The position numbers and the translations under genes are program-made. Shown here in pieces: positions 5,559-19,709 of a DNA stretch of 24,000 nt. Location: the NCBI GenBank assembly GCA_017798145.1, contig CP059069.1, positions 519,226 through 543,225 on the forward strand, in the 5' to 3' direction. Numbering within the stretch: position 1 is the first letter of the stretch; every line of letters starts with the position of its first letter. This DNA is from Akkermansiaceae bacterium (GTDB taxonomy: Bacteria > Verrucomicrobiota > Verrucomicrobiia > Verrucomicrobiales > Akkermansiaceae). The notes below the pieces were generated by a model. It did no database searches and was not told the origin of the DNA. It saw only the letters and a list, made by a program, of their open reading frames with translations.

Positions 5559-5650
5559 CCTGCGCCGCCTGACGACTTAGGCAATCTGAATACTTTCAGT
5601 GTCATAATAATCTGACCAAGGCACCTGCCTGACCTCATCCAACCTCAAGA

Positions 5651-5688
5651 AGCCCGCCCGGCCTGTGCCGTGGCGGGCTTTTCGTTTC
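5651..5688 (+). terminator. intrinsic terminator after the PLD gene
   Basis: AGCCCGCC (5651-5658) pairs with GGCGGGCT (5672-5679), with extra inner pairs, followed by TTTTCGTTT. Confidence 0.6.
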
Positions 5689-5713
5689 AACAACCAACTA
5701 ACCAACATCCCAA

Positions 5714-5983
5714 ATGATTCCACATCTCCACAGACACATCCCCCATCCCTGCCAGCCCATGCTGCGCACCCATCGCCGTTTCCCAAATCGGAAATGGTTT
5801 CTGATCCCGCTCGCGGGGTTCGCCTTGGTGCTCGCGCTTGCATCCTGCTCGGAGCCTGCGCCCAAGCCGCCTCCGATCCCGGTTACAACAAATACTGAGC
5901 CCGTGGGCGAAGGCCTGAAGGTCATCGCATTCGCCATGCTTGGCGCGTCCGTCGTAGTCGTCCTCGGGAAGATGATCCGCTGA
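5714..5983 (+). CDS. small putative lipoprotein / membrane protein (89 aa, or 74 aa from ATG 5759)
   Basis: From M16 the sequence reads MLRTHRRFPNRKWFLIPLAGFALVLALASC: a basic n-region, a hydrophobic core and an LASC lipobox. A second hydrophobic segment, VIAFAMLGASVVVVLG, lies at the C-terminus. A CA-rich leader sits upstream. Confidence 0.45.
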   Translation: MIPHLHRHIPHPCQPMLRTHRRFPNRKWFLIPLAGFALVLALASCSEPAPKPPPIPVTTNTEPVGEGLKVIAFAMLGASVVVVLGKMIR

Positions 5984-5986
5984 ACC

Positions 5987-6130
5987 ATGACTCTTCACGG
6001 CTTCCTCCTCCAACTTGTCATCATCCTCCTGCTGACCTGGATCATCGGCTCCATCACCGAATCGGGCTGGTGTGGGCTCTACCTCGCGGTCGTGCCCTTC
6101 GCCTTTTACGAAATGTTGAGGACTCGCTGA
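5987..6130 (+). CDS. tiny hydrophobic protein (47 aa), not in the ORF track
   Basis: Hand translation gives MTLHGFLLQLVIILLLTWIIGSITESGWCGLYLAVVPFAFYEMLRTR, with two hydrophobic stretches. The ATG lies 3 nt after the previous stop. Confidence 0.35.
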   Translation: MTLHGFLLQLVIILLLTWIIGSITESGWCGLYLAVVPFAFYEMLRTR

Positions 6131-6158
6131 TCCGGGGCAGGACAACCCATTCCATCCA

Positions 6159-6299
6159 ATGAATAATCCGAACTTCCTGTTCCTGATCTTCGCATGGATC
6201 GCCATTACCGCCCTCTCGTTCTCGGTGCTGTCCAGCTTCTGGCTGCCGATGCTCGTGGGTGCGGTGACGATCATCCTTCTGATCAAATTCGCACGCTGA
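6159..6299 (+). CDS. tiny hydrophobic protein (46 aa), not in the ORF track
   Basis: Hand translation gives MNNPNFLFLIFAWIAITALSFSVLSSFWLPMLVGAVTIILLIKFAR, with two predicted TM-like stretches. It is followed by a small hairpin (6312-6329) and a terminator-like hairpin. Confidence 0.35.
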   Translation: MNNPNFLFLIFAWIAITALSFSVLSSFWLPMLVGAVTIILLIKFAR

Positions 6300-6345
6300 G
6301 CAAACAAGTATCTACGATAAACATCGTAGCAAACACCCGACCAAC

Positions 6346-6383
6346 AAGACCCGCCCCGGCAACGTCCGGAGCGGGTCTTTCCA
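6346..6383 (+). terminator. terminator-like hairpin after the small-membrane-protein cluster
   Basis: AAGACCCGC (6346-6354) pairs with GCGGGTCTT (6371-6379), with inner CCGG/CCGG pairing. The T-run is short (TTT). Confidence 0.5.
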
Positions 6384-6426
6384 TTCTCCTGAAACAAACA
6401 ACAACCCCAACAACCAGCCCAACATT

Positions 6427-6966
6427 ATGGCAATCAAACTAATAGCAAACTACTCGAAGCGCTTAGGCCTTCCTGGGTTCAGCAGTCACCAGTTCTCCGT
6501 CTCGGTGGAAACTGAGCTGAGTGCTGCCGACGACATCGCCGCCGAGTCCACGCGTCTCTATCACCTCCTCCAGTCCAACGTGGACGAGCAGATGCTCCGC
6601 ACGGGATTCGTCCCGCCGACCGACTACGGCATGGATCCGCCTGCGGATTCCGCCGCAACGCAACGCGGCGATTCCACACCGTCCAACGTCACCACGGTTG
6701 CCAACTGGCAGCGTGGTCCGGCTTGGAAATGTTCCGACAAACAGAAGGATCTGATCCTGAAACTTGTCGACGAGCACCAGCTCGACAAGGATGACGTCGA
6801 GGCACTCGCCAACGAGCGCTTCGGAAAAGGCGTCCGCCTGCTCAACAAGGTGGAGGCATCCGGGCTCATCGACGAGCTGCTCGACACGCATGGCTCCGGC
6901 CAGCGCCAGGGCAACCGCCGCAACGGCTCGGCCTACCGCCGATCCAACGGGAGGGACGCCGCATGA
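6427..6966 (+). CDS. hypothetical protein (179 aa), translationally coupled to the Cas4-like nuclease
   Basis: ATG is preceded by a CA-rich leader, and the stop overlaps the next ATG (ATGA 6963-6966). The C-terminal part, WKCSDKQKDLILKLVDEHQLDKDDVEALANERFGKGVRLLNKVEASGLIDELL, is followed by a basic tail. Family not recognised. Confidence 0.65.
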   Translation: MAIKLIANYSKRLGLPGFSSHQFSVSVETELSAADDIAAESTRLYHLLQSNVDEQMLRTGFVPPTDYGMDPPADSAATQRGDSTPSNVTTVANWQRGPAWKCSDKQKDLILKLVDEHQLDKDDVEALANERFGKGVRLLNKVEASGLIDELLDTHGSGQRQGNRRNGSAYRRSNGRDAA

Positions 6967-7823
6967 CCGCGACAGCTACCCCACCGGAAGCGCCGTTCAC
7001 AACCGGGCTGACACCCTGGGCACAGACGTTGCCCGGACACATCAGCCCGTCGGCGGCGAAAGCCTACCTCGGCTGCTCGCTCAAGTTCTACTACGAGCGG
7101 GTGGCCTGCATCCGCAAGGCGACCCCTGTCGCCCTACACCTCGGCAAGGCGGTGCATGCCGCCCTGCAGTCGTTCCACCTCGCCCGCTGGCGGGGTGGCG
7201 ACGATTCACCTGAGACCGTCGCCGCTGCCTACGAGCTGGCCTTCCAGCAACTCGAACGCGACGAAGGGCCGGTGAACTACAAGGACACGTCCGAGCGGGA
7301 GAAAGCCCGTCAGGACGGCCTGCGCGTGGTTGCCGCCTACCTCGACTCCCCGGAGGCGATGAAGGAGAAGCCGCGTGCGGTGGAAGTCCTGCTCAAGGAG
7401 GACATCCCTGGCCTGTCCGTCCCCCTCACCGGGGCAATGGATCTGGTCGAGGGCGACTTCACGGCAGTGGATTTCAAGTCCGCCGCCGCGAAGCCCGACC
7501 CGGCCAACGCGGCCTTCGATCATGAGATCCAACTTGTCAGCTACCAGCTGCTGATGGAGGCCGCCACCGGCGAAACCCCTCCATCCCTCGATCTGGTTTT
7601 CCTAGTGAAGACCAAGACCCCGCAGGTCATCCGGGTGAAATCCAGACCCGCCGATGAGCACCGAAAGCGCCGGGTCATAGCCTTGCTGGAGACTGCCGTC
7701 CAAGGCATCTCCGAAGACAGGTTCCACCCGCAGCCAGGCATGCACTGCTCGTGGTGCCAGTTCCGCAACGAGTGCGCCCAGTGGCTACCCGGCATGGACT
7801 GGCATGCGAAGAAAGCAGCGTAG
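6963..7823 (+). CDS. PD-(D/E)XK nuclease, RecB/Cas4-like with a 4-Cys (Fe-S) signature
   Basis: It has GAMDLVEGDFTAVDFKS (D...DxK core), a QLVSYQLL (QxxxY) motif, an N-terminal Cys (YLGCSLKFYY, C38) and C-terminal CSWCQFRNEC (C262-x2-C-x5-C, nt 7746 onward). This is the Cas4/AddB-type cysteine arrangement. Confidence 0.85.
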   Translation: MTATATPPEAPFTTGLTPWAQTLPGHISPSAAKAYLGCSLKFYYERVACIRKATPVALHLGKAVHAALQSFHLARWRGGDDSPETVAAAYELAFQQLERDEGPVNYKDTSEREKARQDGLRVVAAYLDSPEAMKEKPRAVEVLLKEDIPGLSVPLTGAMDLVEGDFTAVDFKSAAAKPDPANAAFDHEIQLVSYQLLMEAATGETPPSLDLVFLVKTKTPQVIRVKSRPADEHRKRRVIALLETAVQGISEDRFHPQPGMHCSWCQFRNECAQWLPGMDWHAKKAA

Positions 7824-7827
7824 CCTG

Positions 7828-7877
7828 AAACCAGCGCTCGCCGGATCCGCGTGATCCGGCGGGTAGCTGGTTTTTAT
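7828..7877 (+). terminator. intrinsic terminator after the Cas4-like nuclease gene
   Basis: A nested hairpin: AAACCAGC...GCTGGTTT outside and CGCCGGATC-CGCGT-GATCCGGCG inside, followed by TTTTTAT. Confidence 0.6.
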
Positions 7878-7949
7878 AGGTGTCCAATGCTTTCTTGGCA
7901 AAGATGCAAAGAACGCTACGCTCGCTATTAAATGAGGGCTGACCAAATC

Positions 7950-10900
7950 ATGAAGATACTCCCCGTCGCACCTGTCCTACTCTGTGCAATCATCTCTTTC
8001 CCGCTGTTTCCAACGGGCGCATTAGCTGCCGGAACGACACCTTCATGGCAGGAGATCGGGCCACTGAACATGCCCAGCTTTGAACCGAGCCAAGGGCGGG
8101 TCAATGCGGTTGCCTTTGACCCGGGCAACGCCAATCGCTTTTTCGTTGGAGCGGCCACCGGTGGCGTATGGCGCACCACCGATGGAGGGGCGAACTATAC
8201 GCCAGTCAGTGATAACCTACCCAATCCAGGAGTGAGTTCCCTTGTGGTGGACTACTCAAATGCCAATAGAATCTATCTCGCCACTGGCGACGCGGACGGT
8301 TCCGCTGTTTATAGCATTGGTGTGTGGAAATCGGACGACGGCGGCGGCACATGGGTTGCGACTGGGCTCACCTTTCCCGCCACGGGATTTACCAGAATTT
8401 ATAAACTCATCCAACATCCGACAGCCCCGAATACTCTCTTTGCGGCAACCAGCGCCGGCCTCTATACGACCGCCAATGGCGGCACCACCTGGACCAATTC
8501 GCTAAGCGCTTACAAGCTCTATGACCTCGAATTTAAGCCGGGAACTCCGAGCGTGTTCTACGCCTGTGGCTCCGACGCCGGGGGCGGGAGGTTTCTCCGC
8601 TCTACGGACACGGGAGCCACCTGGAGTGTCATCGCCACTGGTCTGCCTGCCTCAACGGGTGTGGGGCGTTGCGCGATCGCACCTACGTCAGCAGCCCCCG
8701 GCACCATTTATTTCCTGAGTTCCGGGACTTCAAGCTATTATGGCCTATGGCGCTCGCAGGATTCCGGACTTTCCTTCTCTCAGATGTCAGGCAGCGGTGC
8801 TTCCAATGTGTTTTCCGGAGTGTCTTCATACAAATGCACCCTCACTGTCGCGCCCGATGCCGCCGATGAGGTGTATGTGGCGGGTACGACTCCTTTCAAG
8901 TCTGAGGATGGTGGTTCGACTTGGACTGAAATCCGCAATGATGCCGCTTTTGCGATGGTCTGCCATGTTGATTTTCATGCTATGGAATGGCGGGGCGCTG
9001 ATCTCTATGTCGGTACGGATGGAGGGCTGCACAGAACTGCCAATCGAGGGATCAACTGGACCGATCTGAGCGCCCGGCTAGGCATTGCACAAATCTATGC
9101 TTTCGGTCAGACCGAAGCCACCGCAGCTCTCGTCTACACGGGACAGCAAGATGATGGGCTCAACCGCTGGAACGGTTCATCATGGGCGCATGTGCAGGTT
9201 GGCGACTGGGGGCGGAGTGTCATACATCCGTTTCAGGCGTCGATTGGATACGCCTTCGTTCAGTCCAGCCTGAGAAAGACCACCGATGGATGGAGTTCCA
9301 GTCAGGCCCTTACGATCACCTCGACTGAGTCCGGACCATTTGTGAATACCTCACTCGTCATGGATCCGCTTGTGCCTGAGACGCTCTATGCTGGCTTGCA
9401 GAATGTCTGGAAAACCACCGACGAAGGGGTCACCTGGAGCAAGGTCTCCACCTTCGGATCAGGTACGGTGTCCTCTCTTGCCGTGGCGTCTTCCAACCCG
9501 AAATATATTTACGCCAGCACCAGCACGGGTGACCTATGGGTCACACAAAACGGAGGTGTTAGCTGGACGAATACGCGTGCCCACGGACTCCCCTCCTCGG
9601 GAGGGCGTGCACTCAGACAAATCGCCATCAGCCCGGTTGACCCAAGCACAGCATACCTCTCAACCGACGGCTATGGCACAGGGCCGCGCATCTACCGCAC
9701 CACCAGCGCTGGGGGAACCTGGTCTGATTATTCCGGCTCCCTGCCCGCAGTTCCCGTGCGCAGTGTCGCAGCAGCGGATGGTAACAAAGCAGGGGTCTAT
9801 GCCGGCACCAGCCTCGGCGTCTATTACCGGAGTTCGTTACTTTCAGATTGGATTCCCTTCAACACAGGGATGCCAAACACCTTCATCTCCGATCTACAAA
9901 TTCACAGGGGCTCCCAAAAACTACGAGCCGGGACGTATGGTCGCGGTCTTTGGGAGTCGTCGATAGTCGAAGTCCCGCCCATAGTCACAACGGGGAACGT
10001 GATGTCTTTCATTGCTGCCGCATCAGAGAACTGCGATAGCTTGGCGAGCGTGACGGCAAGCGTTTCTGACGGATACAGCGTGGTGGACACGACGATCTTC
10101 GACAGTGCAACTGCCTCCTTCCATCTCGCCCATGCTTCCTACGCCCCGCAGTCGATTGCGTTGAATGCCGAGTATGTGCCGACTGCCACCTCCAACCTGC
10201 AGTTTCGCAGCCGCCTCGGGTTGGCGACCCCAACCCAGATAATTCATGTTCAGGCATCGACTGATGGCGGCGTCTCATGGACGGACATTTATACGCAAAG
10301 CGGCAGCGGGACATCGGGTGAGAGTTCATTCAATACGCGAAACGTATCGCTGGCGGCCTATGAAGGATCGGTCATCAGGTTGCGTTTCACATACAGCGTA
10401 TCCGGCAGCTACTATCCCCAAACCAGCAACGGGATCGGCTGGCATTTTGACTCTGTCAGTTTCACCGATACCTCTCAGATCACCGCAACCAACCCTTCTG
10501 CCACTGTCGTGAACGGTTCCGTCAATCCGAACGGAATGGCATCGACAGCATGGTTTGAATTTGGCACCACAAGATCTTATGACACACGGAGTGCCATACG
10601 GAATATAGGGAGTGCCGCCTCTGCCGCTCCGATCACGGAAACATTAACCGGTTTACTTCCTGACACGACCTACCATTACCGCGTTGTATCCGTTAATCCA
10701 GATGGCACCAGCCAAGGGCAGGACCGGACATTCGTCACGGGTGGCGCAACAGCCTTTTATGTGTGGGCAAGCGCTAATGGGGTATCTAACGATCCAAATG
10801 CAATCGGTGCCAATGGCATCAAGAACCTCCTCAACTTCGCTTTCGGAGTGGATCCGGTGAATGGCGATGGCGGCGGCCTGGAATACACCGGCACCTTTGC

Positions 10901-11174
10901 CGGAGGCGGGACGATCAAGGCTACCGGTCAACCTATAACGCTCTATGCGGGAGCCGACTTCCGCACCATCTTTGTCCGGCGCAAAGACTACAATGTGGCC
11001 GGACTGACTTACACCGTGCAGTTCAGCGCAAATTTGAGCATGTGGGAGGATGGTGGCGTGCCAACCGTGCTTGCAGATAACGGCATCTATGAAATCGTAA
11101 GCATTGGGTATCCGCCGCTCGTCGACGGTCTGCCACCCCACTTTTTCCGACTCAAGGTTAGCGTTACGCCGTGA
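7950..11174 (+). CDS. secreted Asp-box (BNR) repeat beta-propeller protein with C-terminal Ig/FN3-like modules
   Basis: At least 9 SxDxGxTW-type Asp-boxes are present (TTDGGANYT, KSDDGGGTWV, TANGGTTWT, STDTGATWS, SEDGGSTWT, TANRGINWT, TTDEGVTWS, TQNGGVSWT, TSAGGTWS). The in-frame ATG at 7950 gives the signal peptide MKILPVAPVLLCAIISFPLFPTGALAA and is preferred over the track start at 7932. Confidence 0.85.
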   Translation: MKILPVAPVLLCAIISFPLFPTGALAAGTTPSWQEIGPLNMPSFEPSQGRVNAVAFDPGNANRFFVGAATGGVWRTTDGGANYTPVSDNLPNPGVSSLVVDYSNANRIYLATGDADGSAVYSIGVWKSDDGGGTWVATGLTFPATGFTRIYKLIQHPTAPNTLFAATSAGLYTTANGGTTWTNSLSAYKLYDLEFKPGTPSVFYACGSDAGGGRFLRSTDTGATWSVIATGLPASTGVGRCAIAPTSAAPGTIYFLSSGTSSYYGLWRSQDSGLSFSQMSGSGASNVFSGVSSYKCTLTVAPDAADEVYVAGTTPFKSEDGGSTWTEIRNDAAFAMVCHVDFHAMEWRGADLYVGTDGGLHRTANRGINWTDLSARLGIAQIYAFGQTEATAALVYTGQQDDGLNRWNGSSWAHVQVGDWGRSVIHPFQASIGYAFVQSSLRKTTDGWSSSQALTITSTESGPFVNTSLVMDPLVPETLYAGLQNVWKTTDEGVTWSKVSTFGSGTVSSLAVASSNPKYIYASTSTGDLWVTQNGGVSWTNTRAHGLPSSGGRALRQIAISPVDPSTAYLSTDGYGTGPRIYRTTSAGGTWSDYSGSLPAVPVRSVAAADGNKAGVYAGTSLGVYYRSSLLSDWIPFNTGMPNTFISDLQIHRGSQKLRAGTYGRGLWESSIVEVPPIVTTGNVMSFIAAASENCDSLASVTASVSDGYSVVDTTIFDSATASFHLAHASYAPQSIALNAEYVPTATSNLQFRSRLGLATPTQIIHVQASTDGGVSWTDIYTQSGSGTSGESSFNTRNVSLAAYEGSVIRLRFTYSVSGSYYPQTSNGIGWHFDSVSFTDTSQITATNPSATVVNGSVNPNGMASTAWFEFGTTRSYDTRSAIRNIGSAASAAPITETLTGLLPDTTYHYRVVSVNPDGTSQGQDRTFVTGGATAFYVWASANGVSNDPNAIGANGIKNLLNFAFGVDPVNGDGGGLEYTGTFAGGGTIKATGQPITLYAGADFRTIFVRRKDYNVAGLTYTVQFSANLSMWEDGGVPTVLADNGIYEIVSIGYPPLVDGLPPHFFRLKVSVTP

Positions 11175-11492
11175 GAAGGAGGGCTTGAATTTCTTTTGTA
11201 GCAAATACGTATCACCGCACACTTTGGCAATCCCAGCTGGGATCTGAGTGAGACTCTGCCGAGGGAACAAGGGGGATGACCTCGTGTCGGCGAATGGCGT
11301 CGGTGTCGGTCATGGGCAGAAATGATTTGGGTGGGGGTCGTGCTGCGGCAAGCCGGGTGCGAACAATGAGAGAAGCAGGACAGTGGTGCCTGCTTCCAGG
11401 TTCGCCAACGGAATTACGTCCCGCTCCGCGTCATAATGAATTGAAAGGAACCGTGGGTTTCTTCCCTCAACACCAACCCCAATACTGACACT

Positions 11493-12515
11493 ATGAATCC
11501 AACACCACACACCAACCAAACCCTCCTCGAAGGCATCTGCCGACGCGGAGTCCTTGTCGCAACATCCGTCCGTTACTGGCGGGGTTGCAAGCGGCTCAAT
11601 CCCGAAGACCTCGGCCTTGATCCCGCGCACGTTTCCGACCGGCTCATCCAGCTCGGTCACAAACGCCTGATCCCCCGTGATGCGCTCTCGGCCTTCGCCC
11701 TGATCGAGTCCCGGACAAACGCCTCCGTGGAGTCTTCGAGCTTTCCCTTCCTGGGAGGCATCGGACGCTTCGTGCCGAACCCCCGGCTCGGCGACCTCAC
11801 CGACAAGCTCAACCAGCTCCGTGAGGAGTTCCGCGAGGCCACGCTCGACTTCGTCGCAGGTTACGCACCCCTGCGTGATGCCGCGATGGAGGAGTGGCGC
11901 GAAGCCGCCCAGCACCTCAACGGAAGTGCAGAGCGCCTGATCGCAACCATCGAGCAGTCGTTCCCGCCCGCCGGGGAGATCGCCAAGCGCTTCGCCTTCG
12001 AGACACGCTTGTTCCAGATTGCCGCCCCCGACCACATCCGCCTGGAAGTGGCCGACGGCATGGAGCGGCTTGAAGTCGCCGACGACCGCCGCCGCATTGC
12101 GGAGGAGGCATCGCGCCGCCTTCAGTCCGACCTCGACGGCTTCATCCGCGAGAGCGTCGCCTCGATGCGTGAGGAAACCGCCCGGCTCGCCGGAGAGGTT
12201 CTCGCCACCATCGACGGATCGGAGAACGGAGTCCACCAGCGCACGCTGAACAGGCTCACCACGTTCATCGACAGCTTCCGTTCGTTGAACTTCGCCGGAG
12301 ACCAGCAGCTGGAGCAAACGCTCGAACGCTTCCGCCGCGACCTGCTCACCCGCAGCGCGGAGGACTACCGCAACGACAGTGCGGCGATGGGCAGCCTCAC
12401 CCAAGGGCTCGCCCGCCTCCGCGAAAACGCCGTCCAGCTCGCCCGCAGCGACGCCCGCGAACTCGTCTCCCGCTTCGGACAGATGGGATCGCGCAGGCTC
12501 GCAGCGGTGAGCTGA
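11493..12515 (+). CDS. DUF3150-like protein (plasmid/ICE-associated family, function unknown)
   Basis: The N-terminus, VLVATSVRYWRGCKRLNPEDLGLDP...LIQLGHKRLIPRDALSAFALIESR...FPFLGGIGRFVPNPRL...LREEFREATLDFVAGY, matches the DUF3150 pattern as I remember it (W-G-x-K-x-L-x-x-EDLGL ... LG-x-K ... FL-G). It is chosen over the longer antisense ORF on composition and on its CA-rich leader. Confidence 0.65.
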   Translation: MNPTPHTNQTLLEGICRRGVLVATSVRYWRGCKRLNPEDLGLDPAHVSDRLIQLGHKRLIPRDALSAFALIESRTNASVESSSFPFLGGIGRFVPNPRLGDLTDKLNQLREEFREATLDFVAGYAPLRDAAMEEWREAAQHLNGSAERLIATIEQSFPPAGEIAKRFAFETRLFQIAAPDHIRLEVADGMERLEVADDRRRIAEEASRRLQSDLDGFIRESVASMREETARLAGEVLATIDGSENGVHQRTLNRLTTFIDSFRSLNFAGDQQLEQTLERFRRDLLTRSAEDYRNDSAAMGSLTQGLARLRENAVQLARSDARELVSRFGQMGSRRLAAVS

Positions 12516-12608
12516 GACTGGCACCACTACTGGCAGCCCGGTGGAAGTTTGATCTTCCGCCGGGTTGCCTCTACTTTCGATCCAACCCCAACATGGAGAC
12601 CACACCCC

Positions 12609-13178
12609 ATGCCCTACATCCGCAAAACATCCCGCAAACCCGGACGCCACTTCGTCACCCTGGACCGCCTCACAGAGGCCAACTGGCAGGTGACCGTGGA
12701 AATGGACAAGCTCGGTCTCTGGTGCGACGAACTCTATGAGATCGACGTATGGCTCGTGCCCGTTTCCTTCTGCTGCTACGGCTGGTTCCAACCGGAGGGC
12801 GACATCTACATCCCGGCTGTGACCGGAGCCAACCTATCCGATTTCATCACCAGCCATCACACACGCCTTACCGACGTCCTGCGCCACGAGTGGTCGCATG
12901 CGCTGGCCGACCGCCGGCCGGAGCTGGTCGATAGCAAACGCTTCGTCCGCACTTTCGGCGGCGACTACGATTCGCGCCACCCCGTCCGGGATCACGACCC
13001 GGATCACCACCTGACGCCCTATGCCGCCACAAGCCCTTGCGAGGACTTTGCGGAAACCTTCCACTACTACATCCGGCACAAGGGAAGGCTGCCGCTGCGC
13101 CTCGCCAACAAGACTAAGATCGCCCGCAAGTGGGAGTTCATCGAGTGGATGGCGGGTAGGATTTCTAAAGCAATCTGA
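12609..13178 (+). CDS. putative zinc metallopeptidase (HExxH)
   Basis: HEWSH lies at nt 12885-12899, with a downstream SPCEDFAETFHYYI segment typical of small zincin-like peptidases. ATG 12609 (MPYIRKTSRK) is preferred over the track's TTG 12549 because the leader word CAACCCCAACA sits 15 nt upstream, as at other starts. Confidence 0.7.
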   Translation: MPYIRKTSRKPGRHFVTLDRLTEANWQVTVEMDKLGLWCDELYEIDVWLVPVSFCCYGWFQPEGDIYIPAVTGANLSDFITSHHTRLTDVLRHEWSHALADRRPELVDSKRFVRTFGGDYDSRHPVRDHDPDHHLTPYAATSPCEDFAETFHYYIRHKGRLPLRLANKTKIARKWEFIEWMAGRISKAI

Positions 13179-13220
13179 TACTGTTCGCCCCGGCCGACAG
13201 GATCGCCCAAACTCCACATC

Positions 13221-13925
13221 ATGAAATGCCTCACTTGGAACCTCGAATGGACGAACCCGGCCAGCCGCCGGGCAAGTTTGATCAATGAACTCATCTCCGG
13301 GATCGATCCGGACGTCATCTGCTACACGGAGGTCAACAAGGACATGGTGCCAGCAGGGCACATCATCGAGGCCGATGCCGATTATGGCTATCCAATGAAA
13401 CCTGGTCGCAGAAAGGTTCTGCTCTGGAGCAAGTATCCCTGGACGCAACCCGATGCCTACGGGGATGACGAGTTGCCGAGCGGAAGGTTTGCCATGGGCG
13501 TGTGTAGAGGGATCCGCTTCGTCGGAGTCTGCATTCCTTGGCGTGATGCCCATGTGAAGACAGGGCGGCGCGACCGTGCCCCTTGGGAGGATCACATTTC
13601 CTATTGCGCAGGCCTCGGGCGCATCCTCCGGCAGCATGCCGCCGATGCGGAGCCGCTCTGCGTTTTGGGGGACTACAACCAACGAATCCCCAGGGTCAGC
13701 CAGCCGATAAATGTCGCCCAGGCTCTTGCCGAGGAGATTCCGGATGATTTTCGGATAGCTACAGCCGGTGCAACCGACCTCGAAGGCCTGAACCTCATCG
13801 ACCACATCACCGTATCAGCGGGACTTGAAATCTCGGTCACCGGATTTCTGCCGAGAACCTCCGAAGACGGAACCCACCTTTCCGACCATTCGGGAGTCGT
13901 GGCAGAACTCCAAGCCCTCGACTGA
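13221..13925 (+). CDS. endonuclease/exonuclease/phosphatase (EEP) family protein
   Basis: Motifs are in canonical EEP order: MKCLTWNLEW, DVICYTEV, VLGDYNQRI, IDHITVS and LSDHSGVVAEL. Confidence 0.85.
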   Translation: MKCLTWNLEWTNPASRRASLINELISGIDPDVICYTEVNKDMVPAGHIIEADADYGYPMKPGRRKVLLWSKYPWTQPDAYGDDELPSGRFAMGVCRGIRFVGVCIPWRDAHVKTGRRDRAPWEDHISYCAGLGRILRQHAADAEPLCVLGDYNQRIPRVSQPINVAQALAEEIPDDFRIATAGATDLEGLNLIDHITVSAGLEISVTGFLPRTSEDGTHLSDHSGVVAELQALD

Positions 13926-13974
13926 GCCATCGTCCAGCGGATCAAATCCGCGAGCCTCTACGGCCTCATTTCCG

Positions 13975-14007
13975 AGCCCGCCCGGTCACCAACCCGGCGG
14001 GCTTTTT
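13975..14007 (+). terminator. intrinsic terminator after the EEP gene
   Basis: AGCCCGCC(C)GG pairs with CCGGCGGGCT (one bulge), followed by TTTTT. Confidence 0.65.
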
Positions 14008-14030
14008 CGTGCCGTAGTTGCGGCATCTCC

Positions 14031-14180
14031 ATTTCCCCAGCCAGCCCACTACACCTCCCGTCACATTACTCCGCCCCAACCAGCCTGAATTTTAAACCAC
14101 CACCAATCCCACCACCAATCCCACCACCTCCAACGAAACCACCCGACCCAACCCCACTGCCAAAACACAACGACTCATCC
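14031..14180 (+). promoter_or_regulatory. G-depleted, C/A-rich untranslated tract (rut-like leader or ncRNA body)
   Basis: My hand count gives about 11 G in 150 nt. The tract lies between a terminator (13975-14007) and a second terminator-like hairpin (14186-14225). No plausible ORF is present. Confidence 0.35.
14097..14129 (+). repeat. 12-nt tandem repeat CCACCACCAATC, about 2.7 copies
   Basis: CCACCACCAATC occurs at 14097-14108 and 14109-14120, followed by the partial copy CCACCACCT. Confidence 0.8.
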
Positions 14181-14185
14181 GCACG

Positions 14186-14225
14186 AAGGGCGGCTCCATA
14201 CCGGGGCCGCCCTTTGTGCGTTTCC
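14186..14225 (+). terminator. terminator-like / attenuator hairpin in the leader of the DUF1257 operon
   Basis: AAGGGCGGCTCC pairs with GGGGCCGCCCTT (about 12 bp including one G-U), followed by TGTGCGTTTCC. It lies 36 nt upstream of ATG 14261 and downstream of an already complete terminator. Confidence 0.5.
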
Positions 14226-14260
14226 AGCAAAACAACAACCAACCAAATACGAACAACCAC

Positions 14261-14650
14261 ATGTCACACTTCACCACCATCCAGACCCAGATCCGGGATC
14301 TTGAAGCCTTGCGCGACGCATCCGTCGAACTCGGCCTCCAGCTCCTGGCTGATACCCAGTGCCGGGGCTACGCCGGCATTACCCGTCCCGCACCGCACGT
14401 CATCAAGCTCAAGGGCCCGTATGACATCGCTGTCGAGCCGGACAAGGAGAACCCCGGCTGCTACGGCCTCACCACCGACTGGTGGGATGGGCACGTCGCC
14501 AAGGAAGTCGGCACCGGCTACAGCCGCCTGCTGCAATCCTACGGCGTCCACAAGACCATGCGCGAGGCCGCCACACGCGGGCTGCGCCACACCCGCAGGA
14601 TCGAGGCCGACGGCACCGTCCTGCTCACCCTGGAAGGAGGTTCGCTATGA
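14261..14650 (+). CDS. DUF1257 (Ycf35-like) protein
   Basis: MSHFTTIQTQIRDLEALRDASVELGLQL... is the characteristic DUF1257 N-terminus as I remember it. ATG 14261 is preceded by the leader word CAACAACCAAC. The stop overlaps the next ATG. Confidence 0.8.
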   Translation: MSHFTTIQTQIRDLEALRDASVELGLQLLADTQCRGYAGITRPAPHVIKLKGPYDIAVEPDKENPGCYGLTTDWWDGHVAKEVGTGYSRLLQSYGVHKTMREAATRGLRHTRRIEADGTVLLTLEGGSL

Positions 14651-14847
14651 GCCGCAAGATCCTTGTCCGTGTTTCCCCAGCCGGGGAGATCAGCGTCGAG
14701 GCCGAGGGCTTCCAGGGAAAAGGCTGCGAGGCCGCCACCAAGGCGATCGAGGACGCACTCGGGAAACCCCAGGCGCGCACCCGCAAGCCGCAGTTCTGGC
14801 GACCCCAGTTCCTCCGCAACGAACAACAGCTAGGAGGCGAGGGATGA
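14647..14847 (+). CDS. DUF2997-like small protein (66 aa)
   Basis: MSRKILVRVSPAGEISVEAEGFQGKGCEAATKAIEDALGKPQARTRKPQF matches the remembered DUF2997 pattern (beta-hairpin, G-x-G-x-x-C, LG, basic tail). ATGA overlaps occur at both ends (14647-14650 and 14844-14847). Confidence 0.75.
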   Translation: MSRKILVRVSPAGEISVEAEGFQGKGCEAATKAIEDALGKPQARTRKPQFWRPQFLRNEQQLGGEG

Positions 14848-15140
14848 AATCCACCCTCCGCTTCAACCCCGGCGGTCACATCGACTGCCTCTACACCGAA
14901 GCGATCGATCTCCGTGCGCTCGGGCGACTTCATGTCGTCCGGGCCACGGACATCCGTTTCTGTGAAAAGACCCAACTGTGGAAAGTCCGCTGTGCCTCGT
15001 CCGGCCAGCTCCTCCACAGCGATCCCTCCCGCGAGGCATGCCTCGTCTGGGAACATGAAAACCTCGGCCCACCCAATCCGGAACCACCGAGACCCACCGG
15101 CACACTGCCAAACCTCAGACCGGTCACAGGCCGGCTCTGA
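14844..15140 (+). CDS. hypothetical small protein (98 aa)
   Basis: This is the C-terminal 98 codons of track ORF 14214-15140, starting at the ATG that overlaps the DUF2997 stop: MKSTLRFNPGGHIDCLYTEAIDLRALGRLHVVRATDIRF... It is wedged between two recognisable genes of the same operon. Confidence 0.55.
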   Translation: MKSTLRFNPGGHIDCLYTEAIDLRALGRLHVVRATDIRFCEKTQLWKVRCASSGQLLHSDPSREACLVWEHENLGPPNPEPPRPTGTLPNLRPVTGRL

Positions 15141-15163
15141 CAACCAAGAACCAATCCAAACTT

Positions 15164-16690
15164 ATGAACCTCACCACCTACCTCCGCGCCGGATACCCCG
15201 GCCTCGCCATCATCAGTTCCGAGGAAGCTCGTGCCGAAGCGGAAATCGCCAACGCATGCACTTCCCTGAAACGCAAACTCCTCGCCTGGTCCTCCACGGA
15301 GGGTCTTGCCGATGTTAAGGAAGGGCGCGTCACCCCGTGCCCCGACCCACTCGATGCCTTCCAGCTTCTGGACGGCGTCTTCGCCTCGGACAAGCCACGC
15401 CACGTCGTGCTGCTCCGGGATCTCCAACTCCACCTCGACCAGAGCGACCCCATGCTCGTGCGCCGCATCAAGGACGCACTGCGCATCGCCAAGGCCAACG
15501 GCCACACCATCGTCCTGCTCGGCTGCCGTTTGAAACTGCCCGCCGAACTCGAACACGAGATCACCCACGTTGATTTCGACCTGCCCGACCCGGCGGGGCT
15601 TCACACCGTGCTCGATGGCATCATCAAGTCGGCGAAGCTAAAGAATGTCCACGAGGTGATGCGGGAGGCAGCCGTCCAGGCAGCCCTCGGCCTCACCACC
15701 ACGGAAGCGGAGAACGCGTTCGCCCTGTCGGTCATAGAGACCAATGGGATCGACCACCGCATCATCTCCCGTGAAAAGGCGAACACGCTGAAACGAAACG
15801 GCCTCGTCGAGGTCGTCGGGAACGCCACCTCCCTGGAGGACATCGGCGGACTCGGCCTGCTCAAGGAATGGCTGCAACGCCGCTCCGGTGCATTCAGCGA
15901 ATCCGCGAAAGCCTACGGGCTGCCCGCACCGAAAGGATTACTCATCGTCGGCATCCCCGGCACCGGGAAATCGCTCACCGCGAAAGCCACCGCCGGAGCA
16001 TTCGGCCTGCCGTTGCTGCGCCTCGACATGGGGCGTGTGTTCGGTGGCATCGTCGGCCAGTCGGAAGCCAACCTCCGCTCCGTCATCCAGACCGCCGAGG
16101 CCATCGCCCCGTGCGTGCTGTGGATCGATGAAATAGAAAAAGGCTTCTCCGGAAGCTCTTCGAGCGGCAGCACCGATGGCGGCACCTCCTCCCGTGTCTT
16201 CGGCTCGTTTTTGAGTTGGATGCAGGAGAAGACCAAGGCGGTGTTCGTCGTGGCGACGGCGAATGATGTTTCCAAGCTCCCGCCCGAGTTCCTGCGCAAG
16301 GGAAGGTTCGACGAAATGTTCTTCGTAGATTTACCCGACGCCTTCGAGCGTGCGCAGATCTGGGACATCGTCATCGCCCGGCACAAGCGCAAGCCAACCG
16401 ACTTCGACACCGTCGTCCTCGCCCGCGCCTGCGAGCAGTTCACCGGGGCGGAGATCGAGGCCGTGTTCATCGACGCCATGCACGAGGCCTATGCCGAAGG
16501 CGAGGAACCCAAGCCCAAGCACATCCTCGAAGCCATCAACGGCACCGTCCCCCTGGCGCAGCTCATGGACGGCAAGATCGCCGCGTTGAGACATTGGGCG
16601 AAAGGCCGTGCCCGTGAGGCAGCGAGCCGGAGCAACACCACGTCGTCGGCATCCTACCGCCCCAACAGACGGATGTCCGGGATGAACTGA
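15164..16690 (+). CDS. Ycf46-like AAA+ ATPase
   Basis: Walker A is GIPGTGKS (nt 15950-15973; K269 at 15968) and Walker B is CVLWIDEIEKGF. The region GGTSSRVFGSFLSWMQEK...VFVVATANDVSKLPPEFLRKGRFDEMFFVDLP closely follows the Ycf46 family sequence as I remember it. The length (508 aa) and a non-AAA N-terminal domain also fit. Confidence 0.9.
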   Translation: MNLTTYLRAGYPGLAIISSEEARAEAEIANACTSLKRKLLAWSSTEGLADVKEGRVTPCPDPLDAFQLLDGVFASDKPRHVVLLRDLQLHLDQSDPMLVRRIKDALRIAKANGHTIVLLGCRLKLPAELEHEITHVDFDLPDPAGLHTVLDGIIKSAKLKNVHEVMREAAVQAALGLTTTEAENAFALSVIETNGIDHRIISREKANTLKRNGLVEVVGNATSLEDIGGLGLLKEWLQRRSGAFSESAKAYGLPAPKGLLIVGIPGTGKSLTAKATAGAFGLPLLRLDMGRVFGGIVGQSEANLRSVIQTAEAIAPCVLWIDEIEKGFSGSSSSGSTDGGTSSRVFGSFLSWMQEKTKAVFVVATANDVSKLPPEFLRKGRFDEMFFVDLPDAFERAQIWDIVIARHKRKPTDFDTVVLARACEQFTGAEIEAVFIDAMHEAYAEGEEPKPKHILEAINGTVPLAQLMDGKIAALRHWAKGRAREAASRSNTTSSASYRPNRRMSGMN

Positions 16691-16735
16691 CCCGCGCCGT
16701 AGCTGTGGCATCCTGCCGCATGCCCCATAATATCC

Positions 16736-16768
16736 CTGCCAGGGAGAGTTCCATCCTCTCTCTGGCAG
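16736..16768 (+). terminator. strong hairpin after the AAA+ gene (probable terminator, weak U-tract)
   Basis: CTGCCAGGGAGAG pairs with CTCTCTCTGGCAG (13 bp including one G-U, 7-nt loop). The tail is CATGCCTTTCCC. Confidence 0.45.
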
Positions 16769-17004
16769 CATGCCTTTCCCTCTCAAAACTCCCGCACCCA
16801 ACCCTTCCTAACTCCCCGCCACCCATCCCTCAAGAGCGCTCGGCAGCGCGGCTTACAAAGCCGTGATCCTCACCTCCCACCTCACTCGATACCTCCAGCG
16901 GTAGTCTGAACACAAGCGCCGTTGAACGAAACAGCTGGGGTGCACCCGAAAGGCCGCCCCAAGTCGCTTGTGCGGGGAAAGAAAAACGGTAAAAGAGCAA
17001 AAGG

Positions 17005-18027
17005 TTAAAGGGTAAAACGACGCCTTCTGGTCAGCAACGCGCTAGCTGACAATACCGTCAAAAGTAATGCCGACGGCTCGGGGACACTGGCGACGCGGAA
17101 CCCCACGTAGTCGAGCTCGTTCGGGGGCGTGTTGACGTTGCTTTTGGACGCGGGCAGGGAGTCGGAGTTGTTGGCCCACGAACCGCCCCGCATCCCGCGC
17201 GTCGAACCAAAGACCACCGCATCGTTCCATTCAAACACGTTCCCCGCTTGGTCGTTCGTTCCATACGCGCTCTCCGAATTCGGGCCATACGCACCGACAT
17301 CCGTCAGATAGTTCTGGCTGCTGCTGTAGCTACCGCTCTGCGTCACCGCAAAATCCGTGCTATCGAAGTAATTCGCCGCGCCTGCCGCGCCGACGGTGTT
17401 GCTGTTGATCGTATTGCTCTGCGTAGCCTGCGCCCAGTAGCCGCCCACTCCGGGACCGCCCTTGTTCGGATCATAATACGCCGCCTTATACCACTCGTTT
17501 TCCGAAGGGAGCCACACCGTGGCTCCCACGTTCTTCGAGGACCCCACGCCGCTGGTCGCGCCGTTGAGCGTGTAGGCTCCGTCTTCCGTGGTGGATGCGT
17601 TCTGCGCTCCCGTCGTCTGGCCGTTGTGCAGCCAGTTGGTGAAACGCGCCGCATCGAACCAGCTCACGTAGGTGATGGGGCGGTTCCCGCTGCCGAGCAC
17701 GGTGTAGGAATAATCTCCCGATGTGCCGATGCGCTGGATGCCCGAAATGTTCGCGTTCGTCTGCATGGAAGTGTTGTAAAGCGCGTAGGTGTCCGTTTTG
17801 GCCACGGCGTTGAGGAACGCGGCATACTGCGAGATGGTCGTCTCGTTCTTCGAAATCTTGTATTCATAGCCAACCGCGCCGTAAAGACCGCCGGTCGCCG
17901 CGTCGTTCGCGTTGTTGATGTCACCGACGGTGACGTAGTCTATGCTGACAACGGCGAAGGCCGGAGTTCCAAGGGCGATGCCAGCCAGAACGGCGAGCCT
18001 GCGGGAGGGAATAATAGGGAGTTTCAT
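17005..18027 (-). CDS. FGE/SUMF1-domain (formylglycine-generating-enzyme fold) protein with signal peptide and PEP-CTERM anchor
   Basis: The signal peptide is MKLPIIPSRRLAVLAGIALGTPAFA. FGE-fold motifs include RPITYVSWFDAARFTNWL, VFEWNDA, RGGSW and GFRVA. The C-terminal VPEPSALLLTVLSASALLTRRRR is a PEP-CTERM sorting signal. Confidence 0.85.
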   Translation of the reverse strand: MKLPIIPSRRLAVLAGIALGTPAFAVVSIDYVTVGDINNANDAATGGLYGAVGYEYKISKNETTISQYAAFLNAVAKTDTYALYNTSMQTNANISGIQRIGTSGDYSYTVLGSGNRPITYVSWFDAARFTNWLHNGQTTGAQNASTTEDGAYTLNGATSGVGSSKNVGATVWLPSENEWYKAAYYDPNKGGPGVGGYWAQATQSNTINSNTVGAAGAANYFDSTDFAVTQSGSYSSSQNYLTDVGAYGPNSESAYGTNDQAGNVFEWNDAVVFGSTRGMRGGSWANNSDSLPASKSNVNTPPNELDYVGFRVASVPEPSALLLTVLSASALLTRRRRFTL

Positions 18028-18204
18028 AAAGAAGGGCTACAAGTGACCCTCTAGAAAACAGAAAACGTGCCGGATCACAAGAGATTTAGAGGGGCGTTTT
18101 TGAGGCTGAAGGCCTGCCCACCGAAGACGGCACGATGCCCAATTTCCCCTGCATGACAGACCCGCCCCGCACGACGTGCACAAGCGCGGCGCGGGTCACG
18201 ACAA

Positions 18205-18256
18205 GGCCGCCACGGACTCCCTGGAGAAGGGAACCCGTGGCGGCCATTTCTTTTCC
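18205..18256 (+). promoter_or_regulatory. orphan terminator-like hairpin in the ligase leader
   Basis: GGCCGCCACGG (18205-18215) pairs perfectly with CCGTGGCGGCC (18235-18245), followed by ATTTCTTTTCC. There is no upstream + strand gene for it to terminate, because the neighbour is divergent. Confidence 0.5.
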
Positions 18257-18311
18257 AACCCCTCTCACCACGAGAACCAAACCAACAACCAACCCCAATC
18301 CATACCAAAAA

Positions 18312-19403
18312 ATGAACATCAGCATCACCAGCACGTCCCTCCATTTCCGCGAGGGCAACTCAGACAAGGAATACCACGTCGCCGTCGAGCCGGAGGGCGA
18401 GGGCTACATCGTCACCTACGCCTATGGCCGCAGGGGCTCAACCCTCACCACCGGTAGGAAGACCCAGCACATCGTCACGCTCACCGAAGCGAACAAAATC
18501 CACGACCAGCTCGTCCGCCAGAAGACCGCGAAAGGCTACCGCCCCGCCGGGGAGTCCCGCCAGCCCGACCGCACCAGCACAACCGACGGACAGGACAGCG
18601 GCATCCGCTGCCAGCTCCTCAACCCTGTTGACGAATCCGAACTCGACCGGCTCCTCGGCAGCGATGCCATCTGCCTCCAGGAAAAGTTCGACGGACGCCG
18701 CCTCATGGTTCGCAAACGCGGGGACGAGATCACCGGTATCAACCGCCGTGGACTCATCATCCCCATCCCGGAACCCATCCGCCACGCCTTGAAAGAACTC
18801 CCCGTGGATGTCCTCATCGACGGCGAGGCGGTCGGCGACACCCTCCACGCCTTCGACCTCCTTGAGGTGAAAGGCCACGACATCCGGGGCAACGCCTACC
18901 TGTCACGCTTCGCCGGGCTGCTCACCCTCCTCGATCCCGAACACAAGCACCTCCGCCCCGTGAACACCCACATGGAGGCTGAGGAGAAACGCGCCATGTT
19001 CGAGACCTTCCGCCGATGCGGCAGCGAGGGGGTCGTCTTTAAGGAGATCGACGCACCGTTCAGCCCCGGCCGCCCGAACTCCGGTGGTAGACACCTGAAG
19101 TTTAAGTTCGTCGAGAGCGCCTCGTTCATCGTCACCGGGCACAACGCCAAGCGCAGCGTCACCCTCGGCCTGCTCGCGGAGGACGGCGGAGGCATCGTCC
19201 CCGCAGGCAAGGTCACCATCCCACCGAACCACCGGATCCCGGCAGTCGGTGCCGTCGCGGATTGTCGCTTCCTCTACGCCTTCCGGGAAAGCGGCAGCAT
19301 CTACCAGCCTGTCTATCTTGGCGAACGGGAGGACATCCCCGCCGAGGACTGCACCACCGCTCAGCTGAAATACAAAGCCGAGCCAATGCAGGTAGCCGCC
19401 TGA
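18312..19403 (+). CDS. WGR-domain::ATP-dependent DNA ligase fusion
   Basis: The N-terminal WGR-like module is SDKEYHVAVEPEGEGYIVTYAYGRRGSTLTTGRK...KTAKGYRP. Ligase motif I is QEKFDGRR (K at nt 18684), III is VLIDGEAV, IIIa is LHAFDLLEV, IV is EGVVFKE and V is HLKFKF, followed by an OB-like tail. ATG 18312 is preceded by both leader words, so the track's upstream extension from 18135 is rejected. Confidence 0.85.
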   Translation: MNISITSTSLHFREGNSDKEYHVAVEPEGEGYIVTYAYGRRGSTLTTGRKTQHIVTLTEANKIHDQLVRQKTAKGYRPAGESRQPDRTSTTDGQDSGIRCQLLNPVDESELDRLLGSDAICLQEKFDGRRLMVRKRGDEITGINRRGLIIPIPEPIRHALKELPVDVLIDGEAVGDTLHAFDLLEVKGHDIRGNAYLSRFAGLLTLLDPEHKHLRPVNTHMEAEEKRAMFETFRRCGSEGVVFKEIDAPFSPGRPNSGGRHLKFKFVESASFIVTGHNAKRSVTLGLLAEDGGGIVPAGKVTIPPNHRIPAVGAVADCRFLYAFRESGSIYQPVYLGEREDIPAEDCTTAQLKYKAEPMQVAA

Positions 19404-19644: not shown

Positions 19645-19709
19645 CCAGCTTTGCTCAATGAATGATTGTGAATTGCGTGGTGCGCGGAAGTTTGCAAGCA
19701 TTCCTCCCG

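Follow-up and report, generated by a model that had tools for sequence, protein, structure and literature searches.

Translation without Shine-Dalgarno (SD) pairing is the closest described setting for the locus that we report here. Verrucomicrobiales, like Bacteroidia, are reported to be globally without SD sites (PMC10798248; also PMC10783764). In enterobacteria, C/A-rich stretches upstream of start codons have been proposed to work via ribosomal protein S1 or ribosome standby (PMC3879156; 10.1101/808485; PMC5934652). We analyzed a 24,000-nucleotide stretch of an Akkermansiaceae genome (hereafter the window; positions 519,226-543,225 of a single-contig 4.39-Mb genome of 61% G+C) in which short words of C and A recur upstream of several dispersed start codons. 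A first-pass annotation had taken these words for a common translational enhancer or operator that links five otherwise separate transcription units into one co-regulated unit. We found that the words are probably the cores of the C/A-only, G-depleted, SD-free initiation leaders of the host lineage, which here head the cassettes of a mosaic island. Relatives of the AAA+ ATPase and WGR-domain DNA ligase encoded in the window occur in Luteolibacter, Haloferula, Oceaniferula, and other Akkermansiaceae (Verrucomicrobiales), and by sequence the host appears to be a Luteolibacter-like member of Verrucomicrobiales.

We checked the words, their gaps, and their partial copies in the window sequence, and all of the coordinates reported in the first pass were correct. 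The exact 11-mer CAACAACCAAC occurs on the + strand at 5688, 14233, and 18283, leaving gaps of 15, 17, and 18 nucleotides to the ATGs at 5714, 14261, and 18312. Three copies compare with 0.01 expected, and 0 of 100 dinucleotide shuffles reached three. Seven C/A-rich leaders on the + strand carry this or a related word. The SD-free leader of a small lipoprotein-like open reading frame (ORF; ATG 5714) occupies 5688-5713, with the 11-mer at 5688-5698. The leader at 6391-6426 (C+A 0.90) precedes a 179-amino-acid gene (ATG 6427) that is coupled to a Cas4-like PD-(D/E)XK nuclease gene (6963); it holds the two partial copies, CAACAACC at 6399-6406 and CAACAACCA at 6408-6416, along with the second word, CAACCCCAACA, at 6402. 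That second word recurs at 12583 in the leader of a zincin-like peptidase gene (12580-12608; ATG 12609). A further form, ACCAACCCCAAT, lies at 11472 in the leader of a DUF3150 gene (11466-11492; ATG 11493), which has no strong hairpin 5' of it, and at 18288; the genome holds no other copies. The DUF1257-DUF2997-98aa-AAA+ module (14261-16690) is headed by the leader at 14226-14260 (ATG 14261; C+A 0.93), with the 11-mer at 14233-14243, and within this module a short intercistronic leader (15141-15163; C+A 0.73) places the looser variant before the AAA+ ATPase gene (ATG 15164). Finally, the leader of the WGR-domain DNA ligase gene (18264-18311; ATG 18312) contains the 17-mer CAACAACCAACCCCAAT at 18283-18299. 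A longer ORF (18135-19403) runs through this last tract, and we asked whether the tract could be coding. We rejected this possibility because the tract differs from its sister copy by a 4-nucleotide indel; in addition, the orthologue alignments begin at ATG 18312. As first reported, GGAGG is absent from all seven leaders, and upstream of the BNR, FGE, sigma, kinase, and 22.1-kb genes the composition is ordinary (C+A 0.47-0.60 in the last 30 nucleotides).

Next to these leaders stands the usage of the whole genome. We called 3,170 long ORFs and used 1,397 near-unambiguous ATG starts for upstream composition. At positions -14 to -1 of these starts G drops while A and C climb, and C reaches 52% at -1; host leaders are 41% C and 42% A. 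SD hexamers fall below expectation upstream of host starts, even though the 16S rRNA 3' end, GGATCACCTCCTTTCT, retains the anti-SD CCUCC. In the region -35 to -1, the words AACCAA, AACAAA, CCAAAC, ACCAAC, CCAACC, and AACAAC are enriched 4- to 9-fold genome-wide. When the islands were masked, AACCAA, CAACCA, and CAACAA still peaked at -30 to -10, the same zone as the window words. Outside the islands, we collected 141 C/A-rich leaders of the host; their commonest 7-mers are CAACCAA (18 leaders) and AACCAAC (17 leaders), and 28 host leaders hold CAACCAA, AACCAAC, CAACAAC, or AACAACC. Among those 28 are the leaders of groES, rpsJ, rplE, rplA, rplJ, rplQ, rpsF, and rpsA, all confirmed with Pfam. 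The 11-mer itself occurs nine times in the genome: three times in the window, twice in a sister island described below, and four times outside the islands. Eight of the nine copies lie 12-20 nucleotides 5' of an ATG, among them those before a uxaE-like and an sbtA-like gene, and three of the four outside the islands precede ATGs.

The idea that the words are restricted to the element therefore fails, since unrelated host genes, among them eight that encode ribosomal proteins or a chaperone, are preceded by this vocabulary at an equal distance. The first-pass annotation had itself said that such genome-wide occurrence would count against a dedicated signal; because vocabulary, strand, and spacing are the same before unrelated host genes, this is largely what we found. 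Its remark that C/A-richness before starts is partly a host trait was borne out by the genome-wide C/A words and by SD words at or below chance. The genome shows the retained anti-SD without SD sites and the use before housekeeping genes that characterize Verrucomicrobiales-type SD-less initiation and, indirectly, through the relatives of two island genes, the lineage. Reading the words as host C/A leaders agrees with the published absence of SD sites in Verrucomicrobiales (PMC10798248; PMC10783764).

We then considered structure. Leader regions from -35 to +25 fold at 0 to -5 kcal/mol (0.0 kcal/mol for the 5714 leader), compared with a mean of -10 for start regions of the genome and -16 for internal coding sequence, and the C/A tracts are unpaired in the minimum free energy folds. 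The sense strand and the distance of the words from the start match the placement of an enhancer or standby site. The suggested common translational enhancer survives in part: the words lie on the sense strand at -30 to -8, are free of SD, and are predicted to be unstructured, but the enhancer would be a generic one of the host rather than private to the island. Because RNA of only C and A cannot self-pair, some 25-35 nucleotides before the AUG would be single-stranded, and such a leader could allow 30S loading without SD pairing. Loading would probably occur through a standby site or through S1, a mechanism that we propose by likeness to the enterobacterial C/A enhancers (PMC3879156, PMC5934652, 10.1101/808485); a six-domain S1 protein is encoded in the genome. 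We infer that the tracts are transcribed and that they raise translation. We rejected the idea that the words replace the SD by pairing directly with 16S rRNA, since the longest complement is 6 nucleotides and is matched by 494 of 500 shuffles, which is only chance level.

The SD-like motifs that do occur in the island lie elsewhere. All three of its overlapping (ATGA-coupled) starts have GGAGG 6-8 nucleotides upstream: GGGAGGG at 6949-6955 before start 6963, GGAGG at 14636-14640, 6 nucleotides before start 14647, and GGAGG at 14833-14837, 6 nucleotides before start 14844, each on the + strand. Genome-wide, SD-like 5-mers are found at 18.0% of overlapping starts versus 8.3% of the control zone (n=289), a 2.2-fold enrichment, and at 3.3% of free-standing starts versus 4.6% of the control zone (n=1,502), a depletion. 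This suggests two initiation modes in one genome. C/A leaders would be the usual signal of free-standing starts; in the window they head the first cistron of each cassette, most of them just behind a strong GC hairpin, while later cistrons whose start overlaps the stop codon before it have an SD-like GGAGG instead. On this sequence evidence, the anti-SD may act only in re-initiation.

We compared the leaders of paralogues and orthologues. The leaders of the DUF1257 and AAA+ genes in 15 Verrucomicrobial loci have a C+A content of 0.57-0.97 over 30 nucleotides and cannot be aligned, and we found no orthologue-specific word in them; the Myxococcota and Clostridia homologues have GGAGG in place of the C/A leader. 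The same turnover under a kept composition is seen within the genome. The sister copy of the DUF3150 gene encodes a protein that is 97% identical, but its leader is unrelated, though C/A-rich too. A paralogue of the 5714 gene (genome position 4,255,614; 83% amino acid identity) lacks the 11-mer. All three paralogues of the 179-amino-acid gene keep the hairpin and the C/A leader, while the sequence has drifted. The 11-mer as a fixed lineage-wide motif was rejected as well: in 20 relatives there are 0-8 copies per genome, with no excess over the reversed control. We conclude that the proposed operator linking the units is not supported, as orthologous and paralogous leaders keep their composition but usually not their words, and neither a trans-acting factor nor a promoter was found in our analysis.

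Several observations weigh against so generic an explanation, and the ligase leader is the first of them. In a second species of the genus, the identical 17-mer stands before an orthologue with 66% protein identity, and it is identical or nearly so in ligase orthologues of 61-66% protein identity (loci L083, L113, and L126). The nucleotide homology of the ligase orthologues starts exactly at the 17-mer, and ACCAACCC is present in the ligase leaders of 7 of 13 genomes (P=0.002), although leaders from different genomes are related by descent, so that P values between genomes are indicative only. In this leader, sequence is conserved beyond composition. The second observation is that the seven leaders are far more alike than random host C/A leaders. 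A 9-mer is common to 11 of their 21 pairs, versus 0.98 pairs expected from the host C/A-leader pool (n=141) and 1.65 from purity-matched leaders. The probability that three leaders share an 11-mer is 0.0004-0.004 under host-pool and first-order nulls, and that of the 9-mer sharing is <0.0001. With the islands masked, the 11-mer has four copies and ranks only 54th among 462 words of the same composition, and of the ten tracts of the form (C1-4 AA) repeated at least four times in the genome, the window contains three and the sister island a fourth. Third, a strong GC hairpin whose tail is T-rich stands 5-40 nucleotides ahead of five of the seven leaders. A last point of this kind is technical: the start codons came from a simple in-house gene caller, and some are misplaced.

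Could the sharing be a low-complexity coincidence, with words that mean nothing beyond C/A-richness? One null alone approached the observed sharing (P ~0.03-0.05), a second-order Markov model for which the seven leaders themselves were the training set, and the window had been singled out post hoc from a very large scan. However, the host-pool and first-order nulls leave P values of 0.004 or lower for the 11-mer and below 0.0001 for the 9-mers, and the same excess is reproduced in independent islands of other genomes, which makes chance unlikely. Among 78 C/A leaders of islands in ~30 loci, non-homologous gene pairs of the same locus shared a 9-mer in 38 of 74 cases, versus 23% between genomes; without the present genome, the figures were 23 of 53 and 20%. 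We therefore give coincidence next to no credence. Islands also differ in dialect, with AATAACAAATAAC used in L125, L128, L004, L007, and L145. In these five loci, which are islands of the same family in other Verrucomicrobial genomes, AATAAC/AAATAAC-type repeats stand before several successive non-homologous small genes. The uniformity of words inside an island is real. Under the host-leader reading, the surplus of identical words would have three sources: paralogy with the sister island, a restricted (C1-4 AA)n style, and, as we infer, concerted evolution or recombination at cassette junctions. The surplus is no demonstration of a dedicated operator.

The sharing could also reflect control in trans. 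In this explanation, which is essentially the regulon idea of the first-pass annotation, words and hairpins are mRNA sites read by a factor acting in trans that switches the backbone cassettes on or off together. This factor would be an RNA-binding protein encoded by the island or the host, or else a small RNA rich in G and U. Non-homologous genes within an island share words at about twice the between-genome rate, dialects such as AATAACAAATAAC distinguish the islands, the word of the ligase leader is conserved, and the BNR and FGE cargo genes have no words, all of which such a factor would account for. The likeness to the SAS/ESAS of Cluster K mycobacteriophages (PMC3203893) points the same way. 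However, host housekeeping genes are headed by the same vocabulary, and the words are not kept in most orthologous and paralogous leaders. A C/A-only site pairs only with an exact G/U complement, and wherever the genome contains the reverse complement of the 11-mer, that copy proved to be a leader of the opposite strand. We found no candidate binding protein, and a search of the whole window against Rfam gave 0 matches at E <= 1, which removed a known RNA family from consideration for words and leaders. Hfq was also sought: PF17209 had no match in this 98.5%-complete single-contig genome. The CA motif (AAnAAnAA) of Hfq/Crc in Pseudomonas catabolite repression needs Hfq. The leaders resemble it in their AAC-AAC-type repeats near the start codon but differ in that no Hfq gene is present, and control of this type was therefore rejected. 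Taken together, we consider a trans-acting factor unlikely. As for the co-regulated unit, no shared operator could be shown, but the part of the proposal that groups these genes retains some force: the word-bearing genes are conserved backbone cassettes, and word sharing within islands recurs elsewhere.

We next examined the hairpins in front of the leaders, all on the + strand. A GC hairpin with a T-rich tail lies directly 5' of the 5714 leader (5648-5682; -28 kcal/mol, z -5.7), and a similar one precedes the 6427 leader (6346-6379; -24 kcal/mol, z -4.7). A 16-bp GC hairpin stands 5' of the 12609 leader (12532-12569; -36 kcal/mol, z -5.7), an 18-bp GC hairpin 5' of the DUF1257 leader (14180-14220; -38 kcal/mol, z -7.7), and, ahead of the ligase leader, another strong hairpin whose tail is T-rich (18205-18245; -39 kcal/mol, z -5.9). 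The hairpin at 14180-14220 is kept with compensatory changes 5' of DUF1257 in other Verrucomicrobiales genera, and the one at 18205-18245 has no co-directional gene upstream. Such a hairpin precedes only 3 of the 141 host C/A leaders (2%), and by this count we rejected the hairpin-then-leader arrangement as a general layout of the host. Upstream of the DUF1257 hairpin, 14031-14220 comprises a 150-nucleotide G-poor, C-rich tract with CCACCACCAATC repeats followed by the conserved 18-bp hairpin, a composition that resembles a Rho-utilization site followed by an attenuator; a G-poor tract followed by a hairpin before DUF1257 is also seen in related genomes. A perfect 7-bp inverted repeat, CTACGAT-N4-ATCGTAG, lies at 6312-6329, past the small-ORF operon and ahead of the hairpin at 6346, and could be a protein-binding site.

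No sigma-70-type promoter was found between the hairpins and the ATGs: the 14.3 kb searched contains 3 sites versus 3.7 expected, none of them at a leader. It is doubtful that the window holds five separate transcription units, because terminator-like hairpins lie 40-65 nucleotides before five of the ATGs and there is no sigma-70-type promoter in between. Read-through of the hairpins or an unrecognized promoter would be alternatives to separate units. By eye, we noted two promoter-like boxes near the leaders and no others: an extended -10-like TGTCATAAT at 5600-5608, exactly where the homology to a third copy (genome position 4,255,502) starts, and a CATAAT box at 11432-11437, 55 nucleotides before ATG 11493. 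Both are weak, and neither has a good -35 box.

An unrecognized promoter could overlap the C/A tract, and with no consensus sigma-70 promoter between hairpins and ATGs, the words might act on the DNA level, as operators or within an unconventional promoter such as one read by the neighboring sigma factor encoded at 19662. This sigma-70-family gene and a kinase gene do lie nearby. However, the words are strictly in the sense orientation, their spacing is tied to the ATG, and they are neither palindromic nor dyad symmetric. The same words precede ribosomal-protein genes, and the rRNA promoter has an ordinary TTGACC -35 box. A role at the DNA level is therefore very unlikely.

The window represents one member of a family of multicopy mosaic islands, and in other genomes too the cassette leaders share island-specific words. 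The backbone consists of the 179-amino-acid gene with the Cas4-like nuclease gene, the DUF3150 gene, the DUF1257-DUF2997-98aa-AAA+ module, and the WGR-ligase gene. The sister island, at 604,100-623,500 of the genome on the opposite strand and ~85-104 kb downstream of the window start, keeps the backbone order. It is 85-92% identical to window positions 6347-7793, 11469-12508, 14036-16690, and 18148-19376, and its backbone genes are 85-97% identical to those of the window. Its cargo differs: three large secreted-looking proteins replace the BNR protein, and the cassette with the peptidase and EEP genes is absent. Weaker single-module copies lie near 4.2555 Mb and 2.709 Mb, and a further AAA+ copy near 1.644 Mb is possible, judging only from a 508-amino-acid ORF with a similar leader in front of it. 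Each of the four genes in the DUF1257-DUF2997-98aa-AAA+ module has a match among the PHROG families without assigned function, and the module therefore also circulates in phages. For the AAA+ gene the match is phrog_8638 (E=7e-138), and in PADLOC this gene resembles IetA. We found no VirD4-type coupling protein in the genome and rejected a conjugative element. The nearest tyrosine-recombinase gene is at genome positions 556,433-556,975, 13 kb past the window end.

The edges of the homology blocks raise the possibility that hairpin and C/A tract form a joint for module exchange, with the shared words serving as recombination microhomology on top of their leader role. Blocks start at the hairpin or leader at 6347 and 11469 (sister island) and at 18281 (orthologue in another species of the genus, G010), and two different homology blocks overlap at the 6346-6379 hairpin. 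Compared with the sister island, the window has an inserted cassette of hairpin, leader, peptidase gene, and EEP gene between DUF3150 and DUF1257, backbone order and cargo vary between genomes, and the PeSLs of T4-type phages (PMC2839356) offer a precedent. However, BLAST block edges would coincide with the leader anyway if just the leader and gene were conserved. PeSL-like sigma-70-type promoters are lacking, and the sampled junctions are few and include no recombination product. We regard this reading of the words as junction elements as quite unlikely. A broader version would make the hairpin, an island-specific C/A word, and the AUG together the island's own expression and shuffling cassette, with the backbone as one regulated program. 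A trans-acting factor would then read the word, or an antiterminator would read through the hairpin, and the same joints would exchange modules. We hold this version to be rather improbable.

What would these findings mean? The island pattern alone reveals no new regulatory system. Verrucomicrobiales have only recently been recognized as a second large SD-ignoring group besides Bacteroidia. A concrete candidate for the signal that takes the place of the SD there is the C/A-only tract, which is predicted to be unstructured and has its AACCAA/CAAC-type words at -30 to -10. It is strongest before ribosomal-protein and mobile-element genes, and SD-like motifs are kept only at re-initiation on overlapping genes. 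This has a practical bearing on gene calling, start-codon annotation, and expression design in relatives of Akkermansia and Luteolibacter. The hairpin and shared words of each cassette are in addition a lead on how mobile DNA fits its expression signals to an SD-free host. If the broader cassette version were true, these islands, which are widespread and multicopy in Verrucomicrobiales, would have their own expression and shuffling cassette, an SD-free counterpart of the mycobacteriophage SAS/ESAS and T4 PeSL elements.

We compared the island with both of these phage systems. Like the SAS/ESAS of Cluster K mycobacteriophages, it has an asymmetric word that is repeated in one orientation before many non-homologous genes of a mobile element (PMC3203893). 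About half of the SAS sites have an inverted repeat directly upstream, and their function is unknown (PMC3203893). The SAS is, however, a 13-mer that includes an SD core; its distance to the start is 3-7 bp, and the host genome is virtually free of it (PMC3203893), whereas the words here are SD-free, lie 8-18 nucleotides from the start, and belong to the host's own leader vocabulary; a repeated, one-orientation word is present, but it is not private to the element. The likeness to the PeSL cassettes of T4-type phages lies in a compact intergenic unit: where shuffled modules meet, each small cassette has a terminator-like stem-loop directly ahead of its start region (PMC2839356). Five hairpins of -24 to -39 kcal/mol stand at such boundaries in the window. 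A PeSL contains both an SD sequence and a promoter of the sigma-70 consensus type (PMC2839356), neither of which accompanies the hairpins here, where recombination at the joints would be our reading. The island fits the definition of neither family, because it has no sigma-70 promoter and no SD and its words are not private to the element.

For mechanism, the enterobacterial C/A-rich and ACA enhancers and standby tails would be the closest match by analogy, the likeness being an unstructured C/A stretch 5' of the start (PMC3879156; 10.1101/808485; PMC5934652). Those enhancers assist an SD sequence and are targeted by G/U-rich small RNAs with Hfq, whereas the leaders here have no SD and the genome has no Hfq. 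With SD-independent initiation in Bacteroidia and Verrucomicrobiales (PMC10798248; PMC7797042; PMC10783764), the genome shares a retained anti-SD, SD sites at or below chance, and G-poor leaders. Those papers report the absence of SD but no vocabulary of C/A words, whereas we find AACCAA-type words at -30 to -10. Bacteroidia leaders are described as A-rich and Kozak-like, while here C equals A. As a further difference, SD-like motifs in this genome are enriched at overlapping starts.

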